DNA of 58,998 nt from Escherichia phage vB_Eco_SLUR25. The DNA is taken from sequence record LT907986.1; one strand, 5' to 3'. A model generated the notes under the pieces. It saw only the letters and a list, made by a program, of their open reading frames with translations. It searched no databases and was not told where the DNA came from. The translations under genes were made by a program, and so were the position numbers. Below are positions 1-58,998 of this stretch, piece after piece; position 1 is the stretch's first letter, and each line of letters opens with the position of its first letter.

Positions 1-481
1 ACTCCATGCACATATGCTTAGCGTCAATATAAACACATACAGCTTTCGGGTTTAAATGCTCCTGAATAGCGTCTGCAATCTGGTTAGTAAGACGTTCCTG
101 AACTTGCAGTCGACGGCTAAAAGCATCCACAACGCGAGACAGCTTACTGAGCCCAACGATCTTCCCATTTGGGACATACCCCACGACAGCATGGCCGATA
201 ATAGGAGCCATGTGATGCTCACAATGACTGTATACAGGAATATCACGGACAATGACCATTTCATTGGTGTTTTCCGCCCCATCCTCAAACGTCTTAAACA
301 GACCAGCAATATCTACATCATAACCGCTAAACCACGTTGCATAAGCTTTCGCTACACGCTCCGGAGTTTCCTCCAGCCCTGGGCGCAGAACCGCGCTAAC
401 TTCAATTTGGGATAGTAAAGTACGCACAGCGTTAGCAATACGGAATTGAACACCTTCACTATTAATACTATATTTAGACAT
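1..481 (-). CDS. folE: GTP cyclohydrolase I (FolE), N-terminal part; gene continues across the window junction into 58744..58998
   Basis: Reverse translation from ATG at 481..479 gives MSKYSINSEGVQFRIANAVRTLL...VYSHCEHHMAPIIGHAVVGYVP...; the CEHH core and length fit FolE; frame continues into the end-of-window copy. Confidence 0.75.
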   Translation of the reverse strand, partial: MSKYSINSEGVQFRIANAVRTLLSQIEVSAVLRPGLEETPERVAKAYATWFSGYDVDIAGLFKTFEDGAENTNEMVIVRDIPVYSHCEHHMAPIIGHAVVGYVPNGKIVGLSKLSRVVDAFSRRLQVQERLTNQIADAIQEHLNPKAVCVYIDAKHMCME

Positions 482-515: not shown

Positions 516-1037
516 TTACAGGCTATAGTTTACGTGACATTTCGAAGTTTCTTCGATGGTGCATTCTACAAGTTGAACACCATGTTCGTCAAGCAGCTGT
601 GGTCCAATTACTTCAACCATGTACGCAGCTAAGTTTTCAGCGGTCGGGTTGAATGGAAGTGACACCAGCGAACCTAAATAATCCATTTGATCCCGATGCG
701 ACATATTGTCCATAGTTGTCGTATCTACAAATTTATTTAAGCTCTCAATGAGCGGATCATGCTCCCAGTGCAGGAACTTATGGTCCCAGTTATCTTCCAG
801 CCACTGACACAGCGTAGTTTTAACCACACTAAAATCGATCACGCGTCCCACGTCGTCCAGCCCACCTTTTTCGCGAAGTGTGCCACAGCGAATAACTTTA
901 ACGTCCGTACGACCTTTCGGCGCAACCTTAAAGTGAAACTTATAGTTGTGACCATGAAGGTGGCGACACTTGCTTTCATGCCCTACAACACGATGTCCAG
1001 CGCAAATTTCATGTGAACGAATTACTGTATAACTCAT
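516..1037 (-). CDS. queD: 6-carboxy-5,6,7,8-tetrahydropterin synthase (QueD)
   Basis: 173 aa; CxxxHGH signature (CRHLHGHNY) of QueD/PTPS family; adjacent to folE/queC/queE. Confidence 0.85.
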   Translation of the reverse strand: MSYTVIRSHEICAGHRVVGHESKCRHLHGHNYKFHFKVAPKGRTDVKVIRCGTLREKGGLDDVGRVIDFSVVKTTLCQWLEDNWDHKFLHWEHDPLIESLNKFVDTTTMDNMSHRDQMDYLGSLVSLPFNPTAENLAAYMVEVIGPQLLDEHGVQLVECTIEETSKCHVNYSL

Positions 1038-1593: not shown

Positions 1594-2073
1594 TTACGCT
1601 CTTGCTGTACGTGAATGAACTTCGTAAACAACCCAAAGGATAGCGGATGCTGTGAACTTACTTAAGCTCATTGCTACCATTGATCCCGGATTAACAATAC
1701 CTATAATACTTAAGAACACAATGGAGTCAATCGGTACAGCTACCAAAGAGCTGATAAATACGCGTTGATGAAAAGGCTTCTTGGTGACCGTGTATACTAC
1801 ATAATCAGCAAACTCACTAAGCGCAAAAGACGCAACGGATGCAACTACAACCGCAGGATTACCGAACACCCAGCTAAGGATGCAACCAACGATCATTGCA
1901 GGGATAACGCCTTTGCCAGCGTTACGCTGTGCGTAATCACGCAGAACAAAGATAATGCCTACAAAGAAAGCCATCATTGGGACTACGCCAAGTGGCGTAT
2001 TAAGCATCGGAAGGTAGGAAAAGCCCAGGTTTACGAATGTAATTGCAGCCAGATAAGCAACGATAAATTTCAT
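1594..2073 (-). CDS. multi-pass membrane protein, putative queuosine-precursor transporter (YhhQ/DUF165-like, short form)
   Basis: 159 aa, 4-5 hydrophobic helices; segments FFVGIIFVLRDY and VAVPIDSIVFLSIIG resemble recalled E. coli YhhQ; lies between queD and queC. Confidence 0.4.
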   Translation of the reverse strand: MKFIVAYLAAITFVNLGFSYLPMLNTPLGVVPMMAFFVGIIFVLRDYAQRNAGKGVIPAMIVGCILSWVFGNPAVVVASVASFALSEFADYVVYTVTKKPFHQRVFISSLVAVPIDSIVFLSIIGIVNPGSMVAMSLSKFTASAILWVVYEVHSRTARA

Positions 2074-2193: not shown

Positions 2194-2901
2194 TCAAGCT
2201 TTGCTAATAAATTCGCTGTACCCTTTAGCACGAAGTTTACACGCCGGGCATTCCCCGCAACCATACCCCCAGTCATGCAGAGTGCGGCGGACGCCATTAT
2301 AGCACGTATGGGACTGCTCAATTACTGTGGTTAAGAAACCAACCTTATCCGCCAGCTCAAACGTTTCTGCTTTATTCAAACGCATAAGCGGAGTAACAAA
2401 ATGGATATCTGTTTCATATCCAACGTTTAACGTAGCTTCAAGCAGATCTACAAACTGCTGGCGGCAATCCGGATAACCGCTATAGTCTGTTTCACAAACG
2501 CCTGTAACCACATATCGGGCTCCGACCTTCTGCGCGTAGGCGTGCGCGGTAGTCAGGAAAAGGGCATTACGGTTTGGCACAAAGCTTGCCGGAAGGTTGT
2601 TGTGCTGTTCGTGATGTTCGTTAACATCACCTTCGTTCCCGATTAAAGCACTATTGCCAATCTGTTTCAATGCAGGTAATTCAAAGACAACAAACGGGAC
2701 ATTGTGCTCTTTACAAATTTGATTAGCACAAGCCAGCTCAATGTTATGACGTTGACCGTATGCAAAACCAATAGCGTAGACTTTGTCATAGTTATTAAGT
2801 GCAAGACCTAGACAAGTCACGCTGTCCTGGCCGCCAGACAGGACGACAACGGCGGAGTTATGATTTTTTACAGGGAATACCAGTTTATCTAATTTATTCA
2901 T
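2194..2901 (-). CDS. queC: 7-cyano-7-deazaguanine synthase (QueC), standalone (no amidotransferase fusion)
   Basis: 235 aa; PP-loop SGGQDS near N-terminus; C-terminal Cys cluster C..CGxCxxC. Confidence 0.9.
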   Translation of the reverse strand: MNKLDKLVFPVKNHNSAVVVLSGGQDSVTCLGLALNNYDKVYAIGFAYGQRHNIELACANQICKEHNVPFVVFELPALKQIGNSALIGNEGDVNEHHEQHNNLPASFVPNRNALFLTTAHAYAQKVGARYVVTGVCETDYSGYPDCRQQFVDLLEATLNVGYETDIHFVTPLMRLNKAETFELADKVGFLTTVIEQSHTCYNGVRRTLHDWGYGCGECPACKLRAKGYSEFISKA

Positions 2902-2902
2902 T

Positions 2903-3091
2903 TTAGAAACCTTTAAGGCTAATATTAAGGTTAATGACTACTTGTTCAACTACAGCTTCAGAGGTTACCTGACGCTGGTGTATCTCAAGCTCCGAATGTA
3001 TTTTCTTGGATGCAGCACGACAAATAGCGTCATTCAACTCGTCTTGTAAACGTTGAATTTTCTGCATAAGGATTACAGTTTCTTCATTCAT
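2903..3091 (-). CDS. small hypothetical protein (tandem paralog 1)
   Basis: 62 aa ORF; sequence pattern similar to adjacent 3084..3296 product. Confidence 0.4.
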   Translation of the reverse strand: MNEETVILMQKIQRLQDELNDAICRAASKKIHSELEIHQRQVTSEAVVEQVVINLNISLKGF

Positions 3092-3296
3092 TTACTTCAC
3101 CTTTAATATCACAAGGGTTAATTGTTACGTTAGACATTACAATTGGATGATTGCGCGCTCCAATTGTGCTAACGTGATTAATATCTAATTCTACATGCAC
3201 GCCCTGCATAGTAGCGTGAGCAATTGCAGAATTAAGTTTTTCTACCAGCTCAGTGATCATTTCCTGATGCTGTTTCGCTTCTTCCAAAGTGATCAT
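3084..3296 (-). CDS. small hypothetical protein (tandem paralog 2); start may be the internal Met at 3260
   Basis: 70 aa ORF; ELVEKLNSAIAHATMQGVHVELDINHVS resembles DELNDAICRAASKKIHSELEIHQRQVTS of neighbour. Confidence 0.4.
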   Translation of the reverse strand: MITLEEAKQHQEMITELVEKLNSAIAHATMQGVHVELDINHVSTIGARNHPIVMSNVTINPCDIKGEVNE

Positions 3297-3552
3297 TTCT
3301 TTTCACCTTCACTAATGTTTGTTTATAATCCATACCTTCAAGGTCAACTTCTGCCATTTCACAAAAGTTATCATCTTCCCAGTATGATATCCATTTAGTT
3401 TCACTGTCCATCAACGTTGGCTCATACTCGAATCCGTAAACTGTACCGTCCTGATCCGTAGCCAGCCACCGTACCCATTCAGGGACATCAAGCTTATTAC
3501 CAAAGTATTCAACTTCTTTAGTATGCACAACCTGACTTAACACACGCATCAT
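3250..3552 (-). CDS. hypothetical protein embedded in the 7-deazaguanine cluster
   Basis: 100 aa ORF between queC and queE, acidic, no recognised motif. Confidence 0.45.
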   Translation of the reverse strand: MMRVLSQVVHTKEVEYFGNKLDVPEWVRWLATDQDGTVYGFEYEPTLMDSETKWISYWEDDNFCEMAEVDLEGMDYKQTLVKVKRNDHFGRSETASGNDH

Positions 3553-4256
3553 TCAACCCCGATATATTTGTGAACCTGAAGCTGCAACGTGTACCCGTGT
3601 TTCATACAGCTTTGGACAACGGCTTGGATGTTACTGTGGTTAAGGTCTTCATCCTGCTCGTCCATTGGCTGTAAATATATCTTACCCTTGAAACCCTTCG
3701 GAGGTCTAGCGATAAATGGCGTAGCTTGATGATCTAATGCCTGAAGCGGCAAACCATCTTCCACGTTTACACAGCACGCTTTAAGTACATATTTAAATGC
3801 GTTTGCGCGGTACAGCACAGTAGGATGAATTTTTGAAGTCTTGGGACTACATACAATTACAGGTAACTGGGAAAAGTTCTTAGGTAAAGGCATAGACCCA
3901 TTAGTTTCAATTTGCACCAAATAGCCGCGCGATAACAGTTGTTCAATAAACGGGTTAATTTGCTGACGGAACGGTTCACCCCCAGTGATAACCACAAGTG
4001 AGGTGCTATTGCCTGATTCCAGCTTACGGCTTTCGATTAAACGCATAATATCGACAATATGATAAAGACTACGACCAACAGTATAATCCGTATCACAGCC
4101 AGGACATTGCAGGTTGCACCCAGCAAGACGCACAAATACAGCAGGTTGGCCGCAGAATGGACCTTCACCCTGAATGGTAGAGAATACCGAATGCACGTCT
4201 AAATACATATCGTTTTCTTTAGAACGGGACTCGGGAGCTTGTTGATTAATATTCAT
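3549..4256 (-). CDS. queE: 7-carboxy-7-deazaguanine synthase (QueE), radical SAM
   Basis: 235 aa; radical-SAM Cys triad CNLQCPGC (CxxxCxxC) near N-terminus; overlaps upstream gene by 4 nt. Confidence 0.85.
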   Translation of the reverse strand: MNINQQAPESRSKENDMYLDVHSVFSTIQGEGPFCGQPAVFVRLAGCNLQCPGCDTDYTVGRSLYHIVDIMRLIESRKLESGNSTSLVVITGGEPFRQQINPFIEQLLSRGYLVQIETNGSMPLPKNFSQLPVIVCSPKTSKIHPTVLYRANAFKYVLKACCVNVEDGLPLQALDHQATPFIARPPKGFKGKIYLQPMDEQDEDLNHSNIQAVVQSCMKHGYTLQLQVHKYIGVE

Positions 4257-4278
4257 CTTAAATCCTCTAGTGAAAAAG

Positions 4279-4300
4279 AAAGCGCCTCATTGGGCGCTTT
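4279..4300 (-). terminator. rho-independent terminator-like hairpin after gene 4326..5129
   Basis: Stem AAAGCGCC/GGCGCTTT with 6-nt loop; minus-strand reading is followed by a T5 tract. Confidence 0.5.
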
Positions 4301-4325
4301 CATTATAACGTGATATGTTTTGATA

Positions 4326-5129
4326 TTACAAGCCGTTCAGGGCTTCCGGTACTGGCATAGGTACGCGACCAGTTACACCATTAAACTTCTTCCAACGTGC
4401 ATACTGAGTTTTAACAGTATCTTCGTTCAGACCGTGGCGACCAGCCAGATTCAGAACATAAGAGATCGGAGCAGGCTGACCCAGCGTAGCGCTAATCTGA
4501 TCCATCAGAGCCCAGGCACGACCGCAGGAAGTTTCAGGTTGTGGACGACGAACACCATTCTGTTCAGGCATACGGTTCGCTTCTTTCGCTTTTTCACGTT
4601 CAGCTTTTTCGCGGGCTTTTTCAGCAGCCTTTTCAGCCTGTTTAGCAGCGCGGATCTTGTCTTTGAAGCCTTTGATAGACGAATCCAGTTCGTCAACCAT
4701 GCTCTGCGCAGCAGTCACTGCACCGGACAGATCTTCACCTTTGGATTTTTTAACAACTGCTTTCAGATCTTTCAGAGCATTCTTTAAATGCTTCAGCTGT
4801 TCAGAACCCTTAGATTCTGCTTCCGTAATCTGTTCAACAGTGCTTTCATCGGTAATACCGGATAAAGCAAACTTCACGGTTTCAACTGCCTGGGAAAGAG
4901 CGGTAAATTTATTTTCAGCTTCAGTACGAATTTCAGCTTGTTTCTTTTCGGCGGCAGCTTTTTTCTCTGCTTCTTTTTTCTCTTTTGCTACGCGTGCAGC
5001 TTCAGCGGCAGCGGCTTTTTTAGCTTCTGCGTCGTTAGCAGTAGCTTCTTTCTTTGCAGGCTTAGCAGATTTTGCAGCGGCAGCAGCGGCTGCGGCAGCA
5101 GCGGCTTTCTTATCTTCAATATTACTCAT
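4326..5129 (-). CDS. Ala/Lys/Glu-rich low-complexity protein with a conserved C-terminal domain (paralogous to C-terminus of 20655..21269 product)
   Basis: ATG at 5129 with RBS GGAGTG 6 nt upstream (5138 is GTG); poly-Ala run encoded by GCN repeats near 5075..5110; C-terminus NGVRRP...W...LG.P...TV..QYARWKKFNG. Confidence 0.55.
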   Translation of the reverse strand: MSNIEDKKAAAAAAAAAAAKSAKPAKKEATANDAEAKKAAAAEAARVAKEKKEAEKKAAAEKKQAEIRTEAENKFTALSQAVETVKFALSGITDESTVEQITEAESKGSEQLKHLKNALKDLKAVVKKSKGEDLSGAVTAAQSMVDELDSSIKGFKDKIRAAKQAEKAAEKAREKAEREKAKEANRMPEQNGVRRPQPETSCGRAWALMDQISATLGQPAPISYVLNLAGRHGLNEDTVKTQYARWKKFNGVTGRVPMPVPEALNGL

Positions 5130-16408: not shown

Positions 16409-18745
16409 TTATTTACTTAAGTCCTTGAAAACGCTCTCAATTGACTCATCTATATACCATCCCAATCCCCTGAAATTACGCTTCAACGCATCTTCACGCG
16501 TAACTGGAACGAGCGCACCCATATCTACAAGTTGTTTGATAGTAAGGTCTGTTGCAGTACCTGCTCCCATCCTGTGATTCTTGAATGCAGCTAGACCGTA
16601 AGTCCTGCGTGTGATAGTTGCCTTTGGAATAATACCGTCAACGCGCAGCTCCTTACGATCACATGCAATCTTACCGCCAAGATAGTCTTTGCAGACCTGA
16701 CAGATAGCCTTCACACGTGTTTCGTCATCACCGCCAATAGTACCTTTTTCCCATGCGTTGATCATAATGTCCTGACCGTGCGTAACAAAATCTACCGCCC
16801 ATTGCATGTGGTTTGGTTGCACCACAGGATTGATCCAGTTTTCCCCCACCGCTAACAGAGAAGCAAGACGCAAAGCTTTAAGGTGTGCACGGTTCCACGG
16901 CTGACGGATTGCTTCGTCTTTGGTTGCGTTGATGTGTTCATCACATAACAGGTTAAACTCCCGTTCAATCCTTTCAGCTTCAGGGCTTAACTGGACTGTG
17001 ACAGTTTGAAACTTCGCCATTGTTACTAAGGTGTGGTTAACAAGATGGCACACCATGTCCTTTAACTGCTGGGGCATTATAATCTCAGGGTTTTCATTTG
17101 CAGGAACTCGATCTCCTTCATATTGCACAATGTGGAAACGGGACAAGAAACCGTCTTCCATCATTTCACGAGTTAATGCTTCAAAGAAAGTGTCCGGTGT
17201 TGTTTCTCCCAGCACGCTGAACGCTACCCCTTCCATCGTTTTGGTATTATTAGCCTTATCAGAATATCCAATACCGCCAACAACATCCATTGCGCCAGAT
17301 TTTTGATATACATCTGTGATAGTTTGCTTTAGAGTATAGTTTGCAGTACCAGGCTGAGCTGTTGCCATACCTTTGATGGTTTTGCCAAACTCTCCGTTAA
17401 TGTTCACAAACGAACTATGATCCGCAAAACTTTTACGCAATGCAGGACCGGACGCATAGTTAGTCATGTCTACAAATTCATGAACTTGCGGTAATTGCTC
17501 CCCTACTTGCTTGCAAATATAGCTGGGTCCGGCGTGAAGCATCTCTTTACCCACACCTGAGCGAGCGATAAGCACAAAGTAACCGTTCAGCCCTGTGTTG
17601 GTGATAGTATTCCATACCTTACCGCACACACCAGACAGAAATGCTAACGATGCGGTGATTGCAATTTCTTTCACCGGACGTTGCGATGCTTTGTAGATGT
17701 ACTTCGCAAGCTCCCCAGCAAGCCCCGGCGGCCACTCAATAGCGGTTGCATCAATAGACGTACTTTCTGCAACTACTATTTGACCGGAAGGACTAACTGT
17801 GGTTACAGGCATCTCGGTTACTTGCTGCATTGTGCTGTGTGCGGCTTGCATACGGGCAGCGTAATCCCGCGCCAGCGCAGCTACGTTTTCCTGGGCAATG
17901 CGCTCACGCTCCATGCGACCTCGACACATACGCAAGCAACGGTCAATATGAACATTGTTCTTATTAGCCTTCTCACGTTTGCCCAGTGCACTATAACGGA
18001 ACAGACGGCGACATTGCTCATTACTTTCCGTGTAGAATGCATACATAGAAATGAGGGCAAGGTCTGCTTCAGACTGGGAAGGGAAACCCATTTCAACCCA
18101 TTCACCATTAAATAACCGCGCATACTTATCGCCGTTGTCTGCTTCAAGTGCACGCTGATGAATAGTTGCATCATCTTCTACCGGATCTTTTTCTACCAGT
18201 TCAATTTCATATGTCTTGCGCTGAAGATCAATTTCATTCACAAGCATAGTAAGGTAATGATCACGTTCTGCAACTGGTTTGTTGTAGACAGGATTACCAG
18301 TGCAGATAATAAAACGCTCCTGACTATAAACCTCGACACCATCACGTCGACGACCTTTACCGATGTTACCTCTTAACCACAGGTGAACACCCAAGCCTGA
18401 GCGACTCACTTCGGTGTAAGTATCGAACGCAGTCATGATCTGTTCGAAGCGGCGCAACTGTTCCGGCGTCGTGTGCTTTTTGGGATCCGGTTCATTGGTT
18501 GCATTCTTCACATCCAGGTCGATGCAGGTGAACGGGTCTTGTGCGGTAAGCACAAAGCCAATATAAGGTTTATTGAAATGAGCGGCACAACCTTTGGCAG
18601 CTTCAAACGTCATAAGCATATCCGGATCGGTAACGTCCGCCGCCATCAAACGTCCAATATCGTTATCCCATACGAGCGGTTTTTTATCCGCATCGGCGAC
18701 CGCCCATTGTGGGAAAGCTTTAATTTCAGCGGGAAACAGTTCCAT
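16409..18745 (-). CDS. DNA primase/helicase (primase-polymerase-like N-terminus, D5/DUF3987-like helicase C-terminus)
   Basis: 778 aa from ATG 18745; Walker A-like GVGKE; overall size and architecture typical of phage primase-helicases; family assignment from memory. Confidence 0.6.
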   Translation of the reverse strand: MELFPAEIKAFPQWAVADADKKPLVWDNDIGRLMAADVTDPDMLMTFEAAKGCAAHFNKPYIGFVLTAQDPFTCIDLDVKNATNEPDPKKHTTPEQLRRFEQIMTAFDTYTEVSRSGLGVHLWLRGNIGKGRRRDGVEVYSQERFIICTGNPVYNKPVAERDHYLTMLVNEIDLQRKTYEIELVEKDPVEDDATIHQRALEADNGDKYARLFNGEWVEMGFPSQSEADLALISMYAFYTESNEQCRRLFRYSALGKREKANKNNVHIDRCLRMCRGRMERERIAQENVAALARDYAARMQAAHSTMQQVTEMPVTTVSPSGQIVVAESTSIDATAIEWPPGLAGELAKYIYKASQRPVKEIAITASLAFLSGVCGKVWNTITNTGLNGYFVLIARSGVGKEMLHAGPSYICKQVGEQLPQVHEFVDMTNYASGPALRKSFADHSSFVNINGEFGKTIKGMATAQPGTANYTLKQTITDVYQKSGAMDVVGGIGYSDKANNTKTMEGVAFSVLGETTPDTFFEALTREMMEDGFLSRFHIVQYEGDRVPANENPEIIMPQQLKDMVCHLVNHTLVTMAKFQTVTVQLSPEAERIEREFNLLCDEHINATKDEAIRQPWNRAHLKALRLASLLAVGENWINPVVQPNHMQWAVDFVTHGQDIMINAWEKGTIGGDDETRVKAICQVCKDYLGGKIACDRKELRVDGIIPKATITRRTYGLAAFKNHRMGAGTATDLTIKQLVDMGALVPVTREDALKRNFRGLGWYIDESIESVFKDLSK

Positions 18746-18747
18746 TA

Positions 18748-18972
18748 TCAGCCTCGCATCATTGCAGGACCGCAAGACCGTAATGCTTCAACAAATTGTT
18801 CTGCATTACTTTTTATAGCTTTGACAGCATTTTGTGCATCCAGGTAAGATTCAAACTTGCCCAAATAAAGGATCTTACCAGCCACCATGACGTGAGCGGT
18901 ACGAGCAACGTTTCCACCAATGTAGTACCCGTTACGTTTTAAAAGTGTTAACTGTTCGTCATTAAGAGCCAT
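18748..18972 (-). CDS. hypothetical protein (possible AP2-like fold)
   Basis: ATG at 18972 (MALNDEQLTLL...) with GGAGGA upstream. Confidence 0.4.
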   Translation of the reverse strand: MALNDEQLTLLKRNGYYIGGNVARTAHVMVAGKILYLGKFESYLDAQNAVKAIKSNAEQFVEALRSCGPAMMRG

Positions 18973-19264
18973 AGATCTGTTTCCTCCGCCATTCTTCGTA
19001 TGCTGAATTATTTGCGTCATATACTTCACAAGCGTCTTTCATGCTGTCATACAGTCCAAGGAAAGTTCGCCTTGTTTCTCCGCCTACATCTACCCATGTT
19101 AATCGGGCGAGCCATTTACCAGTTTTATAATCGAAAGTAACTCCCTCACGCCCGCTCACATTTTCCCGCGGAACTCGGGGCTTTCGGCGTCCGAGTCCAC
19201 GACCTTTGAAATTACTACCCGGAACAGTCCTGCACTTACGACCCACGACCAACCTCCGGCACAA
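18962..19264 (-). CDS. AP2-domain DNA-binding protein (start TTG 19264 or GTG 19246)
   Basis: GVTFDYKTGKWLARLTWVDVGGETRRTFLGLYDSMKDACEVYD matches AP2 pattern; only non-ATG starts available; overlaps 3' end of upstream HTH gene. Confidence 0.5.
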   Translation of the reverse strand: MCRRLVVGRKCRTVPGSNFKGRGLGRRKPRVPRENVSGREGVTFDYKTGKWLARLTWVDVGGETRRTFLGLYDSMKDACEVYDANNSAYEEWRRKQIYGS

Positions 19265-24292: not shown

Positions 24293-24343
24293 TTATCAAT
24301 CTATAATGGGCTCTACGGAGCCCTTAATTATCTGGAGATTGTT

Positions 24344-40078: not shown

Positions 40079-43000
40079 TGGCCGAAACCGCTTCGCTAGT
40101 AATCAGAGTTGACGCGAGAGGGATTAGTACCGCGGACTCTATGTTGCGGAACTTAGCGCGTACAGGTGACACAGCGGAGCGGTCTGCTCAACGTGTCACA
40201 TCAAGCTATAAAACATTGTCTAACACATCTAACGAACTTGCAACTGTCACAAGTCGTTTAGATGCTGCAATTGTAGGAATGATCAGCGTTGACACCATTA
40301 ACCGTGTTATTTCGCTATCGGACTCCTGGACTATCCTCACCAACAAACTTGAACTGGCTCGTACGGGTAATGAAACCGTTGCGGATGCACAGCAACGCGT
40401 GTTTGATATTGCCCAGCGGTCACGTACAAGCTTGGAAGCAACTGCAACTCTATATTCCCGTCTCCAGCGTGCAATGAAGAATACTGGTATGACGGGTATG
40501 GAGCTTGGACGTATCACTGAAACAATTAACAAAGCGATGATTGTTTCCGGTGCAACGTCACATGAAGCAAGCGCTGCCCTTATTCAGTTTTCGCAAGCGA
40601 TGGCATCCGGTGTTCTGCGAGGGGATGAATTCCGCTCTGTTGCAGAACAAGCACCCCGCTTAACTCAAATCATGTCCGATGCGTTAGGTGTTACCATTGG
40701 ACAATTGCGTGAAATGGCTTACAGCGGCAAGTTGAGCGCCGATGTGGTTATCAAATCGTTGTCTGGTGCTGCGGATACAATTGATAAAGAATTTAGCCGC
40801 ACTATGCCAACGTTTAACCAGCAATGGACGGTTGCAACAAACAACTTGACTAAGTTCATGGGCGAATCCCAAAAGACTCAAGGTGCGGTTGCTGCATTGG
40901 GACAGACGTTTGTTGCATTATCCGAAAACTTAGGAACGGTTGTAACGGTTGGTTCAGCTTTAGCCACAGTGATTACCGCCCGTATCATTACGGCAATGCT
41001 TGCTAAGACTAAAGCGTCTATAGCTGCTGCAAAAGCATCGCAGATGGAAGCTGCACAAACGGCGGCAACTACTGCGTTGATGCAAAGCTCTATTGGCGTT
41101 ACCGCGCAGAAAGCGGCGGCGGATCGTGCTGCTTCTCTTGCAGCGTTACAGGTTGCTCGCGGGTCATTAGCGGTTGCTAAAGGTACGGCAGCGGAAGCAG
41201 GCGCACGTCTTGCGCTTATTAACGCTACCCGTGCGCATTCTGCGGCAATTATGGCGGACGTACAAGCGCGGCAAGCGCTCAATGCTGCGCTTAATGCAAC
41301 TGTACCAGTCGCAAGCCGAGCAGCTACAGCAATGAGCGTGCTGCGCGGTGCTATGGGGTTAATTGGCGGTCCTGTTGGTGTAGCAATGCTGGCAGCGGGT
41401 GCAATTTACTCCTATAAAGCGTCGTTGGAAGCTGGTCGTGCGGAAAACAATCAGTTTGCGGATAGTGTTGATTCTGTACGCGAGAAACTGATGCAGATGA
41501 CAGAAGCTCAGTTGGCAGCTAACGCGGTCAAAGCTAGAGCAATCCTTCCGGAACTTGAAGAGCAAATGAAGCGAGATCAAACTGCTCTTAAATCTGCTAC
41601 AGAAACACAGAAGTTCTATGAAGCACAATTAAAACGCCGTGCCGCGTCCGGTCGTGATACAGCTAGTGCCGAGAAGAACTTACAAATTGCAACGGATAAC
41701 GTCAAGCTTGCTGCCGAGCGTGCTGAAGAAGCTCAACGTCGTTACAACAATGTCTTAGAAATGACAAGCCCTGCTATCGAGAAAATAATTCCGTTAGCTC
41801 GTCAGCTTGCTGCTGATATGAAGGCTGTTCTTAGCATCAAATCCGGTCCACTTATTGACGAGAAAGTCCTTGACCGTTTTAAAGGTCAGCTAGGTGATGT
41901 TAACCGTGAGATTGATGTTAACACGGTTAAGGGTGCTGGCAATGCTCGCCAAGCTGCAATCCTTAGTGGACTGTATCAGACGCTGGGCAAGGATGCGGAT
42001 ACATACGGAAGTCTTATTCGCAAAGTAGCTATGGGCCAGGACGTTAGCTCAGAGGCAACAAGCGAATCCGCTAAAGAGCTTGTTAAATATGCTCAAGATT
42101 TAGCGCAAGCTCTTGGCAAAAACTACGATCTTGAAGAAGCAGAGAGAAACCGGACTAAAGCTACAAAAGACGGTATTAAAGCAGAACAACAGAACGCCAA
42201 AGTTATTGACGATTTACGCAACAAGCTTAACGAAGTAACCACAGGGGTTAAGGAAAACGCCAAAGCGAAAGCTCAAGCTGTGGCTTTAAACAAGCTCAAT
42301 ACGTCTGCAACTGCCGCGGAAAAAGCAGAAGTTGTTAGTCTTGCTGCTGCAATTTACGATGCAGAAGAAGCTCAAAAGAAACTGGACGAGCGTAAGAAGA
42401 ATCGTAAGTTTGCTCAGGGTCTGTTAGATGAAGGTATGACAGACTATGAAAAAATCGCGTACGAGCAAAATACAAAGATTGCAGAGCTTAATGCAAAACA
42501 GCGAGCCGATGATTTAGCTTACTATCAGCTTTACGAAGATGCTAAAACCCAAGTGCTGAAAAAAGCAAGCATGGAAAGGGAAAACCTGGATAAAGTTCTT
42601 ATGAACCGAATGATATCTTTTTCTCAGGAATCCTTAGGCATTATAATGGATGGCCTGTCACAGGCTGTAAGCCAGCAGAACTTCTTTTATAAAGCTATGT
42701 TTGCAGCACAGAAAGCAATGCAAATCCCATCAATCCTTGCTAACACGGAAACGGCAGCATCTGCGGCGCTTGCATGGGGTACACAGCAAGGAGGTGCTAC
42801 GATGGGTGCAACAATGGCAGCTATAGTGAAAACTATGGGTTATGCGTCCGCTGCCACTGTGGGTGGCTTAGCGATTGCTGGTATGGCTCACGACGGTATT
42901 GATAACGTTCCGCGTGAAGGTACATGGTTGCTGGATAAGGGTGAACGTGTACTTAATGCTCCGTCTAATGACAAGTTAAATCGCTTCCTGGATAGCCAAG

Positions 43001-54376: not shown

Positions 54377-56362
54377 TTAGGCGTATCCCATGTCTTCGAG
54401 ATACTTCTCTGCTTTAGCTATATAAGCATCATAATCTATGTCGTCCGGTATTTTATCCGGTAGCGTCATGATCGGGACACCTCCCGCGCTACCAGCTACA
54501 CGGTTGCCCGAGTTAGCATAGATTATTTCAGGTGTTTCTTCATTAGTGCTTAAATACCAGCGTACAACCTTACCCAAAAATTCGCCATTCCATACCGCGC
54601 CGCCTTTTACCGCACGTAGGATAATGAATTTTCTAATATCGTTGCAATTGCGTATAGTACGAGAAACAGGCGTACCGTGGGCCAAACATTCACATACAGC
54701 TTCCATAATGATCTCACCAGTACAGTTCTTTTGAAGACCTGTCTTTGCGAACCACCCTTTACGTTTAATTTCAACATTTCCTTCCTCGTCAGGTTCTTTT
54801 ACTGCAACATAGTTATTGACGTTAGCGCTGTACAGCTTGTCATAGTAGTTGGACTCCATTTCAAAGCCTGTCACGGATTCCCACCACTTGATCATATTAT
54901 CAACGAAGTCCTGCATGTGGTCTGGATACTTAACCACAATGCCGTCCGTGTTCGCTGAAATTACTTTAACACCATTCAACTCAAATGCTTCAATAAGCAT
55001 CAACAGTGAAAGCTGCCCTGTTAATGTAACTTGTATCAATAATTGCGGCGCGTAAAGGACAGACCACATAGACCCCAGCTTACCAAACGATCCGTTAATA
55101 ACGATCTTCAGCGTGTTGGCTGTGTTCTTGTCTCCGCTGTGCTTAGCTGCAATACGGCGGTCTACAATACTTTTATAAACACGAAGGAACGCTGGTCCCA
55201 ACTGTTCTGGATATAAGCCCTGATTAAGAATGATTGAAGGATAATAAGACGTTACGTCAATGTCCCGCTTTTTGATACCAGGCTCTTTACCGTGGCCAGC
55301 ACACTCTTCGGAGCTATGCAAACCACCAATACCCATACGGTAGACACCGTCCGCAATCTTGATCTCAAGACCTGTTAATGCAGGAGGTAAGCTGACACCA
55401 CCGTTATCGCTAACAATAAAGCGACAGTCCCGAACAATATCCAAAACACTATTCATCAAAGGAGTTTGAAAACGAATAAAGTCTGGTATGTTGTATGCAT
55501 ACTTTGTTCCAGGATAAACTTGCGGACGCTGTGGGCGCACGCCCGTCAACGCTTGGATTTCGTGCTTAATTACGTCTTCTGCAATCTGTGCATCTGAGCG
55601 TGAACGCAGGTCCACACCGTATTCTTGCGACATAATTTCACGCAAGTGAATAGGCTCTTGTAATGCAATAAAACATTCTTCCGTCTGTACAAGGTCGTTA
55701 ATACAGTACCAGCGCACAATAAGCATCTGGTCTTGCGTCAACATTGTATTAGGCTTGAACGGTAAATCCTGCATACGACGAGTATGTACACGTCCGCCGT
55801 ATTGTTTCAAACCGCCGGACCCAGGCAGCACTTCCATGATATCGATGTGGTTAACGTTCTGCATACGCTTGAGACGGTAACTCTTCAATACATCCGAAGG
55901 ACGCCAGTCTTCAACGATTATTTTATCAGTTGCGTCTTTAAGCTGAGCATTAGAGCAGCCGTTAAGCGCAAGCGTAGCAATGGGCATATCGTACCCGTTA
56001 CCGTTAAAGCTTACGATAAGGAAGTTTGTCATTACCCAGTTAAGTAGCAAGCAATTCAAACTACAACCGTGATACATTTCGAAGTAGACAACTTTCTTAG
56101 TCCTTACTCCGCGGAATGCGATCAAGAAGTAGTTTGGATAACATTCAATATCATATACAAGCGGTTCGCGGTTAATCCATGCTTGAATAAGTTCATCCTG
56201 CGTATACAGGTTGTATTGGAAGTTCCGCGCTTCCTCAAGGTTAGGCAAATAATCCTGGCGCTCCCAAGTGCGCTCCGGCGGTAAACGTTTAACCTTTTCT
56301 TTCTTTGCTTTTGGCTCAGGCGGTAAGTCCTGCCAAAAGAAACCAATAGCATCTGTCCGCAT
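54377..56362 (-). CDS. family B DNA polymerase with 3'-5' exonuclease domain
   Basis: Exo motifs VYDIECYP and FNGNGYDMP; pol motifs DVTSYYPSI, KIVINGSFGK, ANTDG; ATG 56362 in TAATG overlap. Confidence 0.75.
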   Translation of the reverse strand: MRTDAIGFFWQDLPPEPKAKKEKVKRLPPERTWERQDYLPNLEEARNFQYNLYTQDELIQAWINREPLVYDIECYPNYFLIAFRGVRTKKVVYFEMYHGCSLNCLLLNWVMTNFLIVSFNGNGYDMPIATLALNGCSNAQLKDATDKIIVEDWRPSDVLKSYRLKRMQNVNHIDIMEVLPGSGGLKQYGGRVHTRRMQDLPFKPNTMLTQDQMLIVRWYCINDLVQTEECFIALQEPIHLREIMSQEYGVDLRSRSDAQIAEDVIKHEIQALTGVRPQRPQVYPGTKYAYNIPDFIRFQTPLMNSVLDIVRDCRFIVSDNGGVSLPPALTGLEIKIADGVYRMGIGGLHSSEECAGHGKEPGIKKRDIDVTSYYPSIILNQGLYPEQLGPAFLRVYKSIVDRRIAAKHSGDKNTANTLKIVINGSFGKLGSMWSVLYAPQLLIQVTLTGQLSLLMLIEAFELNGVKVISANTDGIVVKYPDHMQDFVDNMIKWWESVTGFEMESNYYDKLYSANVNNYVAVKEPDEEGNVEIKRKGWFAKTGLQKNCTGEIIMEAVCECLAHGTPVSRTIRNCNDIRKFIILRAVKGGAVWNGEFLGKVVRWYLSTNEETPEIIYANSGNRVAGSAGGVPIMTLPDKIPDDIDYDAYIAKAEKYLEDMGYA

Positions 56363-57315
56363 TAGACACGTTCTCCAATTAACACACCGCGAAGATTTTC
56401 CCCAAAGAATGCGCAAGGTTGCGGATATAAACTAAAGTCCGCAGTCTTAACCACATTTTCGAGTAATAACAGGATGTCGATATTGTAAACTCCTGTTATT
56501 GATCTGTCCTGCAATACGAAGCTTGCACCTTCTGCATCATCGTAATGAGTACGTGCTAGACCGTTTTCAATATATACGCGAGGACGATCTTCCGCAAAAG
56601 GTTTGATTTTATGCAAGCCCTCAAAAAGACCTGGATCAACAGGATGTGCATTGCATTGAACATTTAAAATACGACGTATATCAGGCCACTCCGCATCAAT
56701 AAGCTGTGTTCGCAACCAGCGACCTTCCGGATAATGAAACGTCACATTGTTCTTGCTAACCTGAATATGTGTCGGGTTAGCTTTAATGCGCAGTATTTCT
56801 TTAATAGCAACAGACGGTATTATGCAGTCAATAGGGAATTGATTACCAAACCAATATTCCGCAATGGTGACGTTATTTGTAGCAAACAGGCTACCGTTAT
56901 TAATCAGAATACCACAGGCCCACGGGCGGGACGCATCCGAGCCTACAAACGGAGCAACAGACTTCACACCGTGTACGAAGCGAGCACCGTCTATTTCGTA
57001 TAAATCGCCTTCAGGGAATACGTGAGGCGTTTCCTTGTCAATGCAGCGTATAGCAACACGAAACGGTCCGGACTTGATATTAAGTTTACCGTTAGCCATC
57101 ATTGTTAACTGTACGGTTTCGTCACAGTTTGAAATAGCTTTAATCATAGGACCAGCTTCGGGCTTGCAATCAATATCCAGCTCAATAGGGCTACCCAGTG
57201 CAATAACACCGTTAAAGCCCTGTACCTGTCCATCACGGATAAGAAAACTGGTAAGCCCTTCTACCAGTTCCTTTTTAGCGACGGAGCCTTGAACAAATTT
57301 AAGAGCGTCTAACAT
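56362..57315 (-). CDS. DNA polymerase sliding clamp (DnaN/beta-clamp-like)
   Basis: 317 aa; QLIDAEWPDIRRILN resembles recalled DnaN motif KLVDGRFPDYRRVLP; immediately upstream of polymerase gene. Confidence 0.5.
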   Translation of the reverse strand: MLDALKFVQGSVAKKELVEGLTSFLIRDGQVQGFNGVIALGSPIELDIDCKPEAGPMIKAISNCDETVQLTMMANGKLNIKSGPFRVAIRCIDKETPHVFPEGDLYEIDGARFVHGVKSVAPFVGSDASRPWACGILINNGSLFATNNVTIAEYWFGNQFPIDCIIPSVAIKEILRIKANPTHIQVSKNNVTFHYPEGRWLRTQLIDAEWPDIRRILNVQCNAHPVDPGLFEGLHKIKPFAEDRPRVYIENGLARTHYDDAEGASFVLQDRSITGVYNIDILLLLENVVKTADFSLYPQPCAFFGENLRGVLIGERV

Positions 57316-57542
57316 TAGCGATCCTCGATTGCTCTAATTGTGGTTAAATCTAATTCACAGGTTGGAGGGTATCCATAAAGTCCCATTTGTTTTCCTTGTG
57401 CATTAAACCATGTACCTGACGGATCCTGCCACTGCTTAGGTGTCTTGTGGAGAAATACTACTCTGTTTTCACCGTAATAATTAATTCTTACGCCCGTGTG
57501 AGTATATTTACGTTTACCTTTTGGTCTTCTTAAGTTAGCCAT
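57315..57542 (-). CDS. hypothetical protein
   Basis: 75 aa from ATG 57542 (57545 is TTG); overlaps dpdA stop. Confidence 0.4.
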   Translation of the reverse strand: MANLRRPKGKRKYTHTGVRINYYGENRVVFLHKTPKQWQDPSGTWFNAQGKQMGLYGYPPTCELDLTTIRAIEDR

Positions 57543-58462
57543 CAAAACAACTCCATTACACGATCACGGAATGTGCCGTCATGGGTAGCGTTAATGTTTG
57601 CAGCAATTACACCATACGCCCATAAGTTGAAGGCAGCACGTGATTCATAGATTGTTGATAAACGTTCGTAAGTGAAACCGTTTTGCTCAAGGTATTTAAG
57701 GACAGCGTCTTGTTCAATCTCAGTTAATGTTGAAACATGCTTACCAAAATGATGGCGGTCCGGTGACTTATCTGATACGCGCATTGGTCCCCACGGAGGG
57801 GTAACCACACTTCCAAACGCTGCTGCTTGAATCCAGGAGGATGAGTCGCAGCTATACCACGGATAACGTTCCATGATGGTTGTTGACGTAATACCAAACG
57901 CATGAAGTTTAATCTTAGCACGTCCGCTACCGTCGCAAATATATTTGTCCCACATGCGGTCAAGCCAAGTCTTAAGCGTGTCCGTTGAACGTCCCACCAT
58001 ACCCCCAATGGTGATATATTCGTAGTTCTTCATGTAGTATTCAAGATAGCGGAAGTCCTCCCCAAAGTGAAAGCAAGGTAACGGTTTAGCACCGCGTGCT
58101 TCCATTTCAAGCTGGTTACGGTAGGTTTGCAACGGATCACCGATACCATCAAGCACCGATGCCATTACCGCACCATCTTCTACCCGCAAAATATCTTTAT
58201 TGCGCTTGATGTATTCGCAGTATTCAACAATATCAATGTGAGCACCTAACGAGTGCGCGGAGAATGCACCGGAGTCGAGAAACACTTTAGCTCCATCCGC
58301 ACGCATCTGATCAACATACTTTTGACGTCCAACGTAGTGGTATGATTCCAAAATATGGGGCAGATTGCGCGTGATATTTTTCTCATGCTCCGACAGCTTT
58401 TCATAACGCTGCTGTCCAGGCATATATCCGTTCGTGTAAACTGCTGCCATAAAAACGTTCAT
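57542..58462 (-). CDS. dpdA: DpdA-like DNA 7-deazaguanine transglycosylase (TGT-fold)
   Basis: 306 aa; LDSGAF matches TGT catalytic Asp region (DSGGFQ-like); ITIGGMVG matches TGT GG(L/M)(S/V)G motif; clustered with folE/queD/queC/queE. Confidence 0.75.
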   Translation of the reverse strand: MNVFMAAVYTNGYMPGQQRYEKLSEHEKNITRNLPHILESYHYVGRQKYVDQMRADGAKVFLDSGAFSAHSLGAHIDIVEYCEYIKRNKDILRVEDGAVMASVLDGIGDPLQTYRNQLEMEARGAKPLPCFHFGEDFRYLEYYMKNYEYITIGGMVGRSTDTLKTWLDRMWDKYICDGSGRAKIKLHAFGITSTTIMERYPWYSCDSSSWIQAAAFGSVVTPPWGPMRVSDKSPDRHHFGKHVSTLTEIEQDAVLKYLEQNGFTYERLSTIYESRAAFNLWAYGVIAANINATHDGTFRDRVMELF

Positions 58463-58465
58463 TTC

Positions 58466-58672
58466 TTACTCCACGTTGTTTAAAGCGACTACTTCAATGA
58501 GATAATTTTCTCTCTTAAAGCATTGCTCGCTTAAGATCTGTTCAACTCTAACATGCAGATCCGCATGAATTTGTTTTGCGTTACTGCTTTCAGCAATACC
58601 GTCCATACATAACAGAACTCTGAAAGTACCTTTTTCTACAGCTCGAACGTTGAAAAAGTATTGTCTTACCAT
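58466..58672 (-). CDS. small hypothetical protein between folE and dpdA
   Basis: ATG 58672 with GGAGGA RBS 3 nt upstream; 68 aa. Confidence 0.4.
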   Translation of the reverse strand: MVRQYFFNVRAVEKGTFRVLLCMDGIAESSNAKQIHADLHVRVEQILSEQCFKRENYLIEVVALNNVE

Positions 58673-58708
58673 ATTTCCTCCAATGACTAAAAAGCCCATA
58701 CCAGTATT

Positions 58709-58735
58709 ATGACCGATATGGGCTTGATCTGTAAA
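58709..58735 (-). terminator. terminator-like hairpin after folE
   Basis: Stem AGCCCATA/TATGGGCT with long loop, followed on minus strand by TTTTAG. Confidence 0.35.
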
Positions 58736-58743
58736 GCTATCTA

Positions 58744-58998
58744 TTATTTACAAGCTTCAAGGAACTCCCGGCGCCATTCTTTACCAATATTGCTACCATG
58801 CTCCAGTTCTGTAGCGCCCCGGAACGCTTTGGTAATAGTAGAGCTGCCGCATACCTGTTTAACACCGCGCGACTCCATGCACATATGCTTAGCGTCAATA
58901 TAAACACATACAGCTTTCGGGTTTAAATGCTCCTGAATAGCGTCTGCAATCTGGTTAGTAAGACGTTCCTGAACTTGCAGTCGACGGCTAAAAGCATC
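58744..58998 (-). CDS. folE: GTP cyclohydrolase I (FolE), C-terminal part (stop at 58744..58746); 58872..58998 duplicates 1..127
   Basis: Reading frame from 1..481 continues through the junction: ...[46 protein letters not shown]. Confidence 0.7.
58872..58998. repeat. 127-bp exact direct repeat of window positions 1..127 (terminal overlap of a circular assembly)
   Basis: Last 127 nt are identical to first 127 nt; repeat lies inside the folE coding sequence. Confidence 0.9.

Follow-up and report, generated by a model that had tools for sequence, protein, structure and literature searches.

A CAjan-type DpdA1 and its preQ0 gene cluster, cut inside folE, in a Seuratvirus genome

Near one end of the phage DNA analysed here (58,998 nucleotides, the whole of which is referred to as the window), the minus strand encodes a protein of 306 residues that resembles the tRNA-guanine transglycosylases (TGTs). 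The locus raises the question of whether this protein acts on tRNA or is instead a DpdA that places a 7-deazaguanine in DNA, and whether the genes at the opposite end of the window belong to the same system. A preliminary description had proposed a DNA-inserting DpdA, encoded in one operon that wraps around the window ends. The window is identical at 100% of its nucleotides to LR025196.1, the genome of Escherichia phage vB_Eco_SLUR63 (Seuratvirus, Queuovirinae). Taken as a whole, the reading that we consider very probable is that a DpdA1 inserts preQ0 into the phage DNA as in phage CAjan, and that the window has cut its gene cluster inside folE.

The window ends and the modification cluster

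Positions 1..127 of the window recur exactly at 58872..58998, forming a direct repeat of 127 bp at the two window ends, and removal of one copy leaves a unit of 58,871 bp. The break falls inside folE. After circularisation, folE (202 aa) is continuous across the junction, from 481 down to 58744, and the circularised window agrees exactly over the junction with LR025196.1 (10931-24629), in which folE is contiguous at 18375..18983. Re-circularisation and re-annotation, as the preliminary description had advised, therefore restored an intact GTP cyclohydrolase I reading frame with an exact match in LR025196.1. Its warning that the linear window splits the cluster was likewise justified, as folE goes unreported in the ORF list of the linear window.

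The repeat might be taken to mean that the virion DNA is physically redundant at its ends, within folE, given that it is exact and that direct terminal repeats are common among phages. However, the GenBank record, equally long in total, shows a separate 127-bp terminal repeat that maps to window 40370..40496, where the tape-measure gene begins and 18.5 kb away from the repeat of the window. Virion ends midway along an essential pathway gene would also be out of the ordinary. With 250-bp reads, 127 is the largest default SPAdes k-mer. SPAdes 3.6 was the assembler used for the SLUR63 genome, on 250-bp reads (PMC5758909). The probability of physical redundancy is accordingly negligible: the overlap is a k-mer artefact of the assembler and not a feature of the genome, should the preliminary description have implied the latter.

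The cluster comprises the following features, given in the direction of transcription:

3549..4256, minus strand: queE, radical-SAM 7-carboxy-7-deazaguanine synthase, 235 aa
3250..3552, minus strand: orf100, phrog_1972, inserted with respect to CAjan and SA126VB
3084..3296, minus strand: orf70, phrog_26258, 96% amino acid identity to CAjan gp44
2903..3091, minus strand: orf62, phrog_24420, 87% amino acid identity to CAjan gp43
2194..2901, minus strand: queC, preQ0 synthase, 235 aa, without a Gat domain
1594..2073, minus strand: YhhQ-like membrane protein, putative preQ0 transporter, 159 aa
1034..1591, minus strand: orf185, conserved ORF in the cluster, phrog_23361, VOG2353
516..1037, minus strand: queD, 6-carboxy-tetrahydropterin synthase, 173 aa
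1..481, minus strand: folE, 5' part, ATG at 481; encodes GTP cyclohydrolase I, which opens preQ0 synthesis
58744..58998, minus strand: folE, 3' part, 255 nt of coding sequence, of which the last 127 nt duplicate 1..127
58872..58998, no strand: second copy of 1..127, assembly overlap; an exact repeat, the record having its repeats elsewhere
58466..58672, minus strand: orf68, 68 aa, between folE and dpdA; SD GGAGGAAAT, then ATG; a CDS in the record
57542..58462, minus strand: dpdA, 306 aa, ATG start; phage DpdA1-type DNA-guanine transglycosylase (preQ0 insertase)

Reading frames and profiles confirmed the gene content and single-strand order that had been described, from dpdA through a small ORF, folE, queD, an ORF, the YhhQ-like gene, queC and small ORFs to queE. 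All four of folE, queD, queE and queC lie within 5.6 kb on the same strand. The span had been put at 5.7 kb; measured between the start of queE and the stop of dpdA it is 5,586 bp, and 5,713 bp arises only when the 127-bp overlap is counted twice.

FolE, QueD and QueC pass curated thresholds: FolE matches PF01227 at 215 bits (cut-off 27), QueD matches PF01242 at 77.7 bits (cut-off 22.4) as well as PHROG 2389 (1e-54), and QueC matches PF06508 at 251.5 bits (cut-off 22) and TIGR00364 at 243.1 bits (cut-off 150.3). QueE matches PHROG 2076 ('QueE-like', 2.6e-68), its best NCBIfam QueE models reaching 95-96 bits against cut-offs of 200-240 and Radical_SAM 27.1 against 29.5. The YhhQ-like protein falls below the cut-off both for Vut_1 (26.5 against 27.2 bits) and for TIGR00697 (22.8 against 50.95). 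Among the remaining ORFs, orf185 has no match in Pfam, NCBIfam or PADLOC, the sub-threshold Pfam scores of orf185 and orf62 (DUF3740, 13.7 bits; CHASE6_C, 15.5 bits) being chance matches, and Pfam returned nothing at E<=10 for orf68, orf70, orf75 or orf100. A DUF3310-like C-terminus, at first suspected in orf185, was dropped for want of Pfam support.

Family assignment of the 306-residue protein

Both TGT-like motifs ascribed to the protein were located, LDSGAF at residues 62-67 and ITIGGMVG at residues 150-157. At 306 aa it is also, as had been stated, shorter than the TGTs, whose chains measure 354-390 aa in bacteria and eukaryotes and 576-577 aa in the archaeal enzyme (arcTGT), and shorter than bacterial DpdA (413 aa). 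The protein is identical at 306/306 residues to the DpdA of CAjan (gp35, YP_009196829.1), and 29 phage records carry a DpdA that is at least 99% identical. Nine active-site residues have been published for the phage enzyme: D63, S64, F67, D105, H132, G153, G154, F189 and D206 (PMC7544227). All nine occur in the DpdA of the window and are invariant among 27 close homologues. Over 60 homologues extending down to 29% identity, no substitution occurs at D206, H187 or S204, and conservation is at least 90% at D63 and D105.

Some DpdA homologues (P0125 and others) look intein-like, with junction residues as the sole basis for that reading; they gave no Pfam match.

Sequence profiles recover little of this relationship. 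A Pfam search of DpdA returned no family at E<=10, and hence not the TGT family (PF01702). The NCBIfam model of bacterial DpdA, NF041059, scored 16.9 bits against a cut-off of 200 (E 0.0022, residues 147-212 only), and the PADLOC DpdA model scored 15.6 bits. The sole profile match is to PHROG 887, a phage-derived family (8e-96). Against PDB sequences, neither phmmer of DpdA nor hmmsearch with a shallow profile returned anything at E<=10; a diverse profile placed bacterial DpdA (7UI4) first at E 0.081, which is suggestive but not significant alone.

The structure model, on the other hand, is clear. A first AlphaFold model, built on 27 sequences of 68-75% identity, reached a pLDDT of 59.3 and was discarded; Foldseek with this shallow-alignment model found only generic TIM barrels, none at E<=0.001. 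The AF2 model built on the 60 diverse homologues has a pLDDT of 95.8 and a pTM of 0.91, and forms a TGT barrel. The best 50 Foldseek matches of this model in the PDB are all TGTs, headed by arcTGT 1J2B (E 2.3e-7, probability 1.00), and the solved structure closest to the model is the DNA preQ0 insertase DpdA, 7UI4. Of the proposed comparison with TGT and DpdA, the structural half thus supports the assignment, with a TGT barrel nearest to 7UI4, and the half that relied on curated HMMs does not, there being no Pfam match. The curated HMMs miss the TGT relationship because of sequence divergence, and the structure test passes clearly.

Neither of the established profile classes accommodates the protein. 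For the bacterial DpdA class, the NF041059 cut-off is not reached and the structural Zn2+ site is not present; for the Pfam TGT class there is no model match, and both the arcTGT C-terminal tRNA-binding domains and the Zn subdomain are missing. The protein is instead a member of phage DpdA1, to which it conforms in homology, barrel fold, catalytic and pocket residues, and adjoining preQ0 genes.

Comparison with its relatives places the protein further. The TGTs (bacterial TGT, QTRT1/2, arcTGT 1IQ8/1J2B) have in common with it the (beta/alpha)8 barrel, the preQ0/guanine pocket and double-displacement chemistry, but differ in their tRNA substrate, Zn subdomain and, for arcTGT, C-terminal tRNA-binding domains, with only 9-15% identity to phage DpdA. 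Bacterial DpdA from Salmonella Montevideo (7UI4), at 17% identity and 413 aa against 306 aa, has DNA-binding insertions and a structural Zn site, whereas the phage protein is without CxCxxC; that site is conserved in bacterial DpdA and shared with TGTs (PMC10164549). The bacterial enzyme works with DpdB, an ATPase-domain protein, and modifies less than 0.1% of G (PMC10516641, PMC10164549), compared with about 30% for the CAjan protein. In contrast, no DpdB or dpdC-K product is found among the 89 annotated features of LR025196.1, and a PADLOC scan of the cluster ORFs returned only QueC and the weak DpdA match.

Substrate and end product in the light of CAjan

The DpdA system itself is already known, the exact protein having been knocked out, modelled and motif-mapped in CAjan. 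CAjan DNA contains 70,628 dPreQ0 per 10^6 nt, which corresponds to about 32% of its guanines, and upon dpdA knockout this falls to less than 6 per 10^6 nt and the DNA is fully cut by restriction enzymes (PMC6884629). Deletion of folE, queC or dpdA likewise abolishes the modification, deletion of yhhQ leaves it in place, and the target motifs are GA and GGC (PMC7544227). The knockout that the preliminary description had called for is therefore published for the identical protein, with loss of dPreQ0 as the outcome (PMC6884629, PMC7544227); the CRISPR spacer target of the CAjan dpdA knockout is unchanged in the window. To what was computed here, namely identity to the CAjan protein, predicted fold, active-site residues and gene content, these papers add, for the identical protein, the product chemistry, the dependence on dpdA, folE and queC, the motifs and the protection from restriction (PMC6884629, PMC7544227).

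These experiments bear directly on whether the protein could be a tRNA-guanine transglycosylase that works with the preQ0 genes to raise queuosine- or archaeosine-type tRNA modification during infection. The label 'queuosine tRNA-ribosyltransferase' is attached to it in LR025196.1 and many related records, and to PHROG 887 as well; its fold is the TGT fold, and the possibility was left open by the 2017 Seuratvirus paper (PMC5758909). Yet the identical CAjan protein is needed for dPreQ0 in DNA (PMC6884629), and the Pfam TGT model gives no match. Furthermore, the CxCxxC...H zinc motif is absent from the sequence, whose only cysteines (82, 130, 176 and 205) are none of them invariant across the family, and the arcTGT C-terminal tRNA-binding domains are missing (306 aa against 577 aa). 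For CAjan, a tRNA substrate is effectively refuted, and for the window we judge it highly improbable. The identity to CAjan DpdA and the proximity of the model to 7UI4 uphold the description of the protein as a DNA-inserting DpdA.

By analogy with CAjan, FolE, QueD, QueE and QueC would convert GTP to 7-cyano-7-deazaguanine (preQ0), and DpdA would then exchange guanine for preQ0 in double-stranded phage DNA that has already been replicated. The exchange would follow the double displacement of the TGTs and take place at GA and GGC. Asp206 would attack as the nucleophile, giving a covalent enzyme-DNA intermediate, and Asp63 would serve as general acid/base. The resulting dPreQ0 would block many type I and type II restriction enzymes. 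GA and GGC sites account for 28.2% of G in the window, or 63,223 per 10^6 nt, near the value measured in CAjan. SLUR63 DNA thus probably carries dPreQ0 of the CAjan type, which, with all GA and GGC sites occupied, would amount to about 28% of G.

The remainder of the cluster matches that of CAjan less uniformly. Gene order and strand are the same, DpdA is identical, and amino acid identity is 99% for QueE, 98% for QueC and 99% for the YhhQ-like protein (CAjan gp41). However, nucleotide identity drops to only 83% over the folE-queD segment, and amino acid identity is 91% for FolE (over residues 21-202), 79% for QueD and 54% for orf185 (CAjan gp40; 85% to SA126VB). CAjan lacks orf100, an extra ORF after queE in the window, with no nucleotide match in CAjan from 3298 to 3546, and CAjan gp39 has no counterpart in the window. 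The dPreQ0 chemistry cited was measured in CAjan.

The divergence of FolE, QueD and orf185 from CAjan, and the lack of CAjan counterparts for orf68 and orf100, could affect the level or the nature of the modification.

From these divergent genes and the extra ORFs, one could envisage a 7-deazaguanine unlike that of CAjan or processed beyond it (dADG or dCDG, for instance, or a product of tailoring by orf68, orf100 or orf185), or another fraction of modified sites. The low identity of orf185 and QueD, the lack of orf68 and orf100 in CAjan and the small ORFs without a recognisable family lend themselves to such a reading, and new derivatives and tailoring enzymes were still emerging in 2023 (PMC10516641). 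Conversely, the proteins 98-100% identical to CAjan include DpdA, QueC and QueE; no Gat, QueF, ArcS, DpdC or methyltransferase-like domain was detected in the cluster ORFs, no further modification gene is annotated in LR025196.1, and the small ORFs (62-100 aa) fall short of the length of known tailoring enzymes. In addition, dPreQ0 has been reported for the Seuratviruses collectively (PMC8594841). Another product, or another fraction of modified sites, is therefore very unlikely. The QueC profile spans residues 17-230 and therefore leaves no room for an extra domain; with QueC lacking Gat and neither QueF nor ArcS annotated among the 89 features of LR025196.1, dPreQ0 is the expected end product.

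This sets the window apart from phage 9g and other Nonagviruses, whose DpdA belongs to the same DpdA1 subfamily at about 69% amino acid identity (e.g. FritzHoffmann), and which have the preQ0 pathway and genomic neighbourhood of the window. There, a Gat-QueC leads to 2'-deoxyarchaeosine (dG+), in contrast to the plain 235-aa QueC of the window with preQ0 as end product (PMC5758909, PMC8594841). The DpdA of Pseudomonas phage Iggy (Queuovirinae), 72% identical in amino acids over its full length, also yields dPreQ0, reportedly at a strict GA motif (PMC10484667), whereas CAjan-type DpdA modifies GGC as well (PMC7544227).

Transcription units and the folE-dpdA slot

Within the cluster, dpdA and the small ORF are indeed 3 nt apart (58463-58465), but dpdA had been placed upstream of that ORF and folE, and on the coding strand it lies downstream: it is the last, promoter-distal gene of the minus-strand block from queE to dpdA. 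Several further features bear on how this block is transcribed:

4331..4302, minus strand: predicted promoter-like site, adjoining the hairpin at 4301..4278 upstream of queE
4301..4278, minus strand: predicted terminator-like hairpin, 9 bp, 6 GC, T5 tail, just upstream of queE
58692..58735, minus strand: folE-orf68 intergenic element, with hairpin, short U tract and sigma-70-like promoter
57315..57542, minus strand: orf75, phrog_38388, sharing 1 nt between its start and the dpdA stop (TGATG)
56362..57315, minus strand: DNA polymerase beta / sliding-clamp-like subunit, 100% amino acid identity to CAjan gp33
54377..56362, minus strand: polB, overlapping the clamp-like gene by 1 nt

The element between folE and orf68 contains a hairpin with a 14-bp stem (58725..58692), followed by a short U tract. 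Its fold (dG -23.8 kcal/mol, z -3.5) was equalled in stability by 0/200 shuffles. A promoter-like site, TTTACA-18-CATAAT (58735..58706; 10/12 in the promoter scan), overlaps the hairpin such that the -10 hexamer forms the loop. SLUR63, CAjan and SA126VB share the hairpin and the promoter-like sequence without a difference, though both flanks diverge, the SD downstream of the element differs by one substitution among the three, and OL960573 annotates a terminator and a promoter at this position. These features suggest that the element may function as a terminator and promoter. Equivalents of the sites upstream of queE are also annotated in OL960573. OL960573 annotates a further terminator in the 120 nt between queC and yhhQ, but the fold there was no better than shuffles (z -1.0), and for this reason the gap was not counted as a unit boundary.

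A single contiguous operon headed by dpdA, as initially described, is consequently not established: the hairpin and promoter-like element follows folE, and dpdA is chained to orf75, the clamp-like gene and polB through 1-nt overlaps. Consensus scans and the folded hairpin with its short U tract point rather to at least two transcription units, one probably running from queE to folE and the next comprising orf68, dpdA, orf75, the clamp-like gene and polB.

The small ORF at the head of the second predicted unit most likely encodes 68 aa, starting, as in the record, at the ATG that follows GGAGGAAAT, and not 77 aa. It occurs in 5/50,697 phage records and in 2 clusters in a search of 5.8 billion proteins; beyond near-identical copies, neither search revealed any relative, and there is no Pfam or PHROG match. 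CAjan has an unrelated ORF of the same length (gp36, 68 aa) in the folE-dpdA slot, with no similarity to orf68, and orf68 has no counterpart in CAjan. It is thus a lineage-restricted allele within a variable slot. Different Seuratviruses hold unrelated 68-aa ORFs here between almost perfectly conserved flanking regulatory sequences, and the neighbouring folE-queD-orf185 segment is 78-83% identical to CAjan with flanks at 97-98%. Because orf68 is predicted to be co-expressed with DpdA, an accessory factor might be imagined. That the position is an exchange slot whose occupant tunes the site or level of DpdA action or counters a defence, next to a recombinant folE-queD-orf185 module, is a speculative proposal that we regard as unlikely overall.

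For annotation, the locus is instructive in several respects. When a SPAdes assembly that looks circular is cut into a window, the gene at the junction, here folE, escapes a linear ORF scan. Pfam, NCBIfam and PADLOC miss phage DpdA1 entirely, and it is found only via PHROGs, via a structure model from a diverse alignment, or via direct identity. The DpdA assignment also corrects the label 'queuosine tRNA-ribosyltransferase' in LR025196.1. The biological gain is small, for the system to which the cluster belongs is the defining trait of the Queuovirinae.

The 306-residue transglycosylase

57542..58462, minus strand: dpdA, 306-aa ORF

The two TGT-like motifs attributed to the dpdA product in the preliminary description were both located, LDSGAF at residues 62-67 and ITIGGMVG at residues 150-157. 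The protein is identical to Escherichia phage CAjan gp35 at 306 of 306 residues, and copies at least 99% identical to it are encoded by 29 phage records. It belongs to the DpdA1 subfamily of phage enzymes, of the 9g/CAjan type (PMC10516641), and the finding is therefore already known; the label 'queuosine tRNA-ribosyltransferase' in LR025196.1, the record of Escherichia phage vB_Eco_SLUR63 (SLUR63), is outdated.

PHROG 887 is the only sequence model that matches the protein (8e-96). Pfam gave no match, even at E<=10, the NCBIfam bacterial DpdA model scored 16.9 bits (cut-off 200), PADLOC DpdA scored 15.6 bits, and a phmmer search of PDB sequences returned nothing. A structural zinc site is common to bacterial DpdA and TGTs (PMC10164549); with only four cysteines (82, 130, 176 and 205) and no CxCxxC...H motif, the 306-aa protein lacks this site. 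The window DpdA is outside the Pfam TGT family, and also outside the bacterial DpdA equivalog, since its score is far under the cut-off, the zinc site is missing and no DpdB was found. It has its fold and chemistry in common with bacterial DpdA and TGTs, and is 72% identical to DpdA from Pseudomonas phage Iggy, approximately 69% to that of Nonagvirus, and 32% to that of mycobacteriophage Rosebush.

The active-site residues of DpdA were assigned in a published homology model (PMC7544227). Both the nucleophile, Asp206, and the general acid/base, Asp63, are present in the 306-aa protein, as are all of the pocket residues (Ser64, Phe67, Asp105, His132, Gly153, Gly154 and Phe189), and none of these positions varies among 27 close homologues. 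An exhaustive HMMER search yielded 5,614 cluster representatives at E<=0.001. In a second, diverse alignment of 60 sequences, with identity down to 29%, the sole invariant columns are Asp206, His187 and Ser204, and the AlphaFold model built from it reached a pLDDT of 95.8 and a pTM of 0.91. The 306-aa transglycosylase has a TGT active site. A first model from the 27 close homologues was superseded, being of poor quality (pLDDT 59.3) and returning only TIM-barrel matches in a structure search, none of them significant.

Several DpdA1 homologues from the exhaustive search (P0125, P0129, P0144, P0148, P0193 and P0163) are 535-640 aa long and align in two pieces, with the break at residue 205 of the window protein; Pfam found no match in any of them. 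In P0125 and P0129, the insert begins with Cys, ends with Asn followed by Ser (RYPWH/CMTEEDH...VTGN/SVDSSSW), and carries LAGLIDADG-like blocks. It is an intein-like element, placed two residues ahead of the catalytic Asp206.

The window ends and the gene block

Bases 1-127 of the window recur exactly as its last 127. Dropping one copy and re-annotating, as had been proposed, leaves a unit of 58,871 bp and restores folE, which is missing from an ORF scan of the linear window. Its CDS does run through the junction, as a 202-aa minus-strand ORF from 481 to 58744 of the circularised sequence, and PF01227 identifies the product as GTP cyclohydrolase I (215 bits). In LR025196.1 (Seuratvirus, Queuovirinae; 58,998 bp), to which window 57300-58998 is 100% identical, folE is a single unbroken CDS (18375..18983), and the circularised window matches positions 10931-24629 of that record exactly, junction included.

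LR025196.1 has its own 127-bp terminal repeat elsewhere: positions 1-127 equal 58872-58998 and correspond to window 40370-40496, such that position 1 of the record is window 40370, the start of the tape-measure gene. For 250-bp reads, the largest default SPAdes k-mer is 127. SPAdes 3.6 was the assembler of this genome, and its input was reads of that length (PMC5758909). Together with the different location of the overlap in LR025196.1, this identifies the 127-bp overlap as the signature of a circular-looking assembly and not a physical terminal repeat; the window is another rotation of the same circle. The deposited 'complete genome' LR025196.1 still holds its assembly overlap, and is therefore 127 bp longer than the true unit. 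One useful lesson of the finding is that annotation of the linear sequence loses folE at the junction.

Further genes of the cluster
Cluster gene, minus strand: QueD (PF01242, 77.7 bits)
1034-1591, minus strand: orf185, 185-aa ORF (phrog_23361)
Cluster gene, minus strand: YhhQ-like membrane protein, 159 aa
Cluster gene, minus strand: QueC (PF06508, 251.5 bits; TIGR00364, 243 bits)
Cluster, minus strand: three small ORFs, orf62, orf70 and orf100 (62, 70 and 100 aa)
Cluster gene, minus strand: QueE-like radical-SAM protein (PHROG 2076, 2.6e-68)

Pfam, PHROG and NCBIfam matches bear out the neighbouring genes listed in the preliminary description. As all are on the minus strand, the order of transcription is queE, orf100, orf70, orf62, queC, yhhQ, orf185, queD, folE, orf68, dpdA. 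Consequently, dpdA is not 3 nt upstream of the small ORF, as had been stated, but 3 nt downstream, as the last gene of the block. The most likely start of this ORF, orf68, is 58672, giving 68 aa with GGAGGAAAT ahead of the ATG, in agreement with the record annotation. The block measures 5,586 bp between the start of queE and the stop of dpdA; the earlier figure of about 5.7 kb (5,713) comes from counting the overlap twice.

orf185 is a conserved member of 7-deazaguanine clusters. Approximately its last 60-100 residues are matched by five other PHROG families, whose lengths are unrelated, and it has no family match in Pfam, NCBIfam or PADLOC. Directly upstream of queE, a 267-aa protein (4326-5129, minus strand) contains a poly-Ala run and long low-complexity stretches rich in Ala, Lys and Glu. 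Its CAjan homologue is labelled 'FtrA domain-containing transcriptional activator', and the strongest terminator-like hairpin of the region comes after its gene.

DNA modification expected in SLUR63

CAjan is the genetic model for the dPreQ0 DNA-modification system. Its DNA contains 70,628 dPreQ0 per 10^6 nucleotides, which corresponds to about 32% of its G, and in a CRISPR-made dpdA deletion 7-deazaguanine is undetectable and the DNA is fully cut by every restriction enzyme tested (PMC6884629). The 30-nt spacer from this knockout is found unchanged at window 57955-57984. Given the 306/306 identity, the knockout and nucleoside mass spectrometry suggested as a check have therefore already been published for this exact protein. 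By nanopore mapping of CAjan, modified G occurs in GA and GGC contexts, and modification is lost in folE, queC and dpdA deletions and kept in a yhhQ deletion (PMC7544227). GA and GGC sites make up 28.2% of all G in SLUR63, or 63,223 per 10^6 nt, which is close to the dPreQ0 level measured in CAjan.

The window encodes the enzymes of the preQ0 pathway as well as the transglycosylase. By analogy with CAjan, SLUR63 would carry dPreQ0 in its DNA at GA and GGC, dependent on dpdA, folE and queC and protective against restriction. dPreQ0, rather than dG+ or dPreQ1, is the expected end product because QueC is a plain 235-aa protein (profile match at residues 17-230) and no Gat-QueC, QueF, ArcS or Dpd partner is among the 89 annotated products of LR025196.1, with which genus-level statements agree (PMC5758909; PMC8594841). 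The DpdA enzymes known so far are all believed to work post-replication (PMC10516641).

Mosaicism and predicted transcription units

Compared with CAjan (window 54377-5800, circular), nucleotide identity is 97.5% from polB to dpdA, 83% in folE-queD, 78% in part of orf185, 91% in yhhQ-queC-orf62-orf70 and 97.8% from queE leftwards, a pattern that makes the cluster mosaic. Neither orf68 (58465-58659) nor orf100 (3298-3546) has a CAjan counterpart in this comparison. orf100 is an insertion that neither CAjan nor the related phage SA126VB has; gp39 of CAjan lacks a counterpart in the window cluster. Only 5 of 50,697 phage records carry orf68, which occurs in just two clusters among 5.8 billion proteins; the SLUR63 allele has no family, and is unrelated to phrog_20065, a 68-aa ORF in the same slot of other Seuratviruses. 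In this folE-dpdA slot (window 58465-58672; 6660-6866 in both CAjan and SA126VB), the 68-aa ORFs of different Seuratviruses are unrelated to one another, and the dpdA start is identical in SLUR63, CAjan and SA126VB, like the hairpin and promoter-like sequence upstream. An effect of orf68 and orf100 on modification is considered unlikely. In phage slur01 (LN881725.1, 50514-52488), the dpdA-to-folE stretch is approximately 280 bp longer and a 'putative endonuclease' is annotated, which suggests that a homing endonuclease has been inserted into this intergenic region.

The genes had been described as one contiguous leftward operon. Their adjacency holds, but a single operon is not established, as a hairpin and a promoter-like site lie between folE and orf68. 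The 71-nt gap contains a hairpin (58725..58692) with a 14-bp stem (dG -23.8 kcal/mol, z -3.5; 0/200 shuffles equally stable), after which comes a short U tract. A consensus scan also finds a sigma-70-like promoter (TTTACA-18-CATAAT, 58735..58706, 10/12), the -10 hexamer of which is the 6-nt loop of the hairpin. SLUR63, CAjan and SA126VB share this element without any difference; the coding sequence on either side diverges, and the intergenic stretch differs solely in one SD base just ahead of the ORF start. The authors of record OL960573 annotated one terminator and one promoter at this site. A second such arrangement precedes queE:

4331..4278, minus strand: terminator-like hairpin and adjacent promoter-like site, just upstream of queE

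Downstream, dpdA, orf75 (a 75-aa ORF), a clamp-like polymerase subunit and polB form a chain of 1-nt stop/start overlaps. The most economical reading, a prediction from consensus scans, is that of two units, one from queE to folE and the other comprising orf68-dpdA-orf75-clamp-polB. If the two-unit reading is true, the DNA-modifying enzyme would share its message with the replisome.
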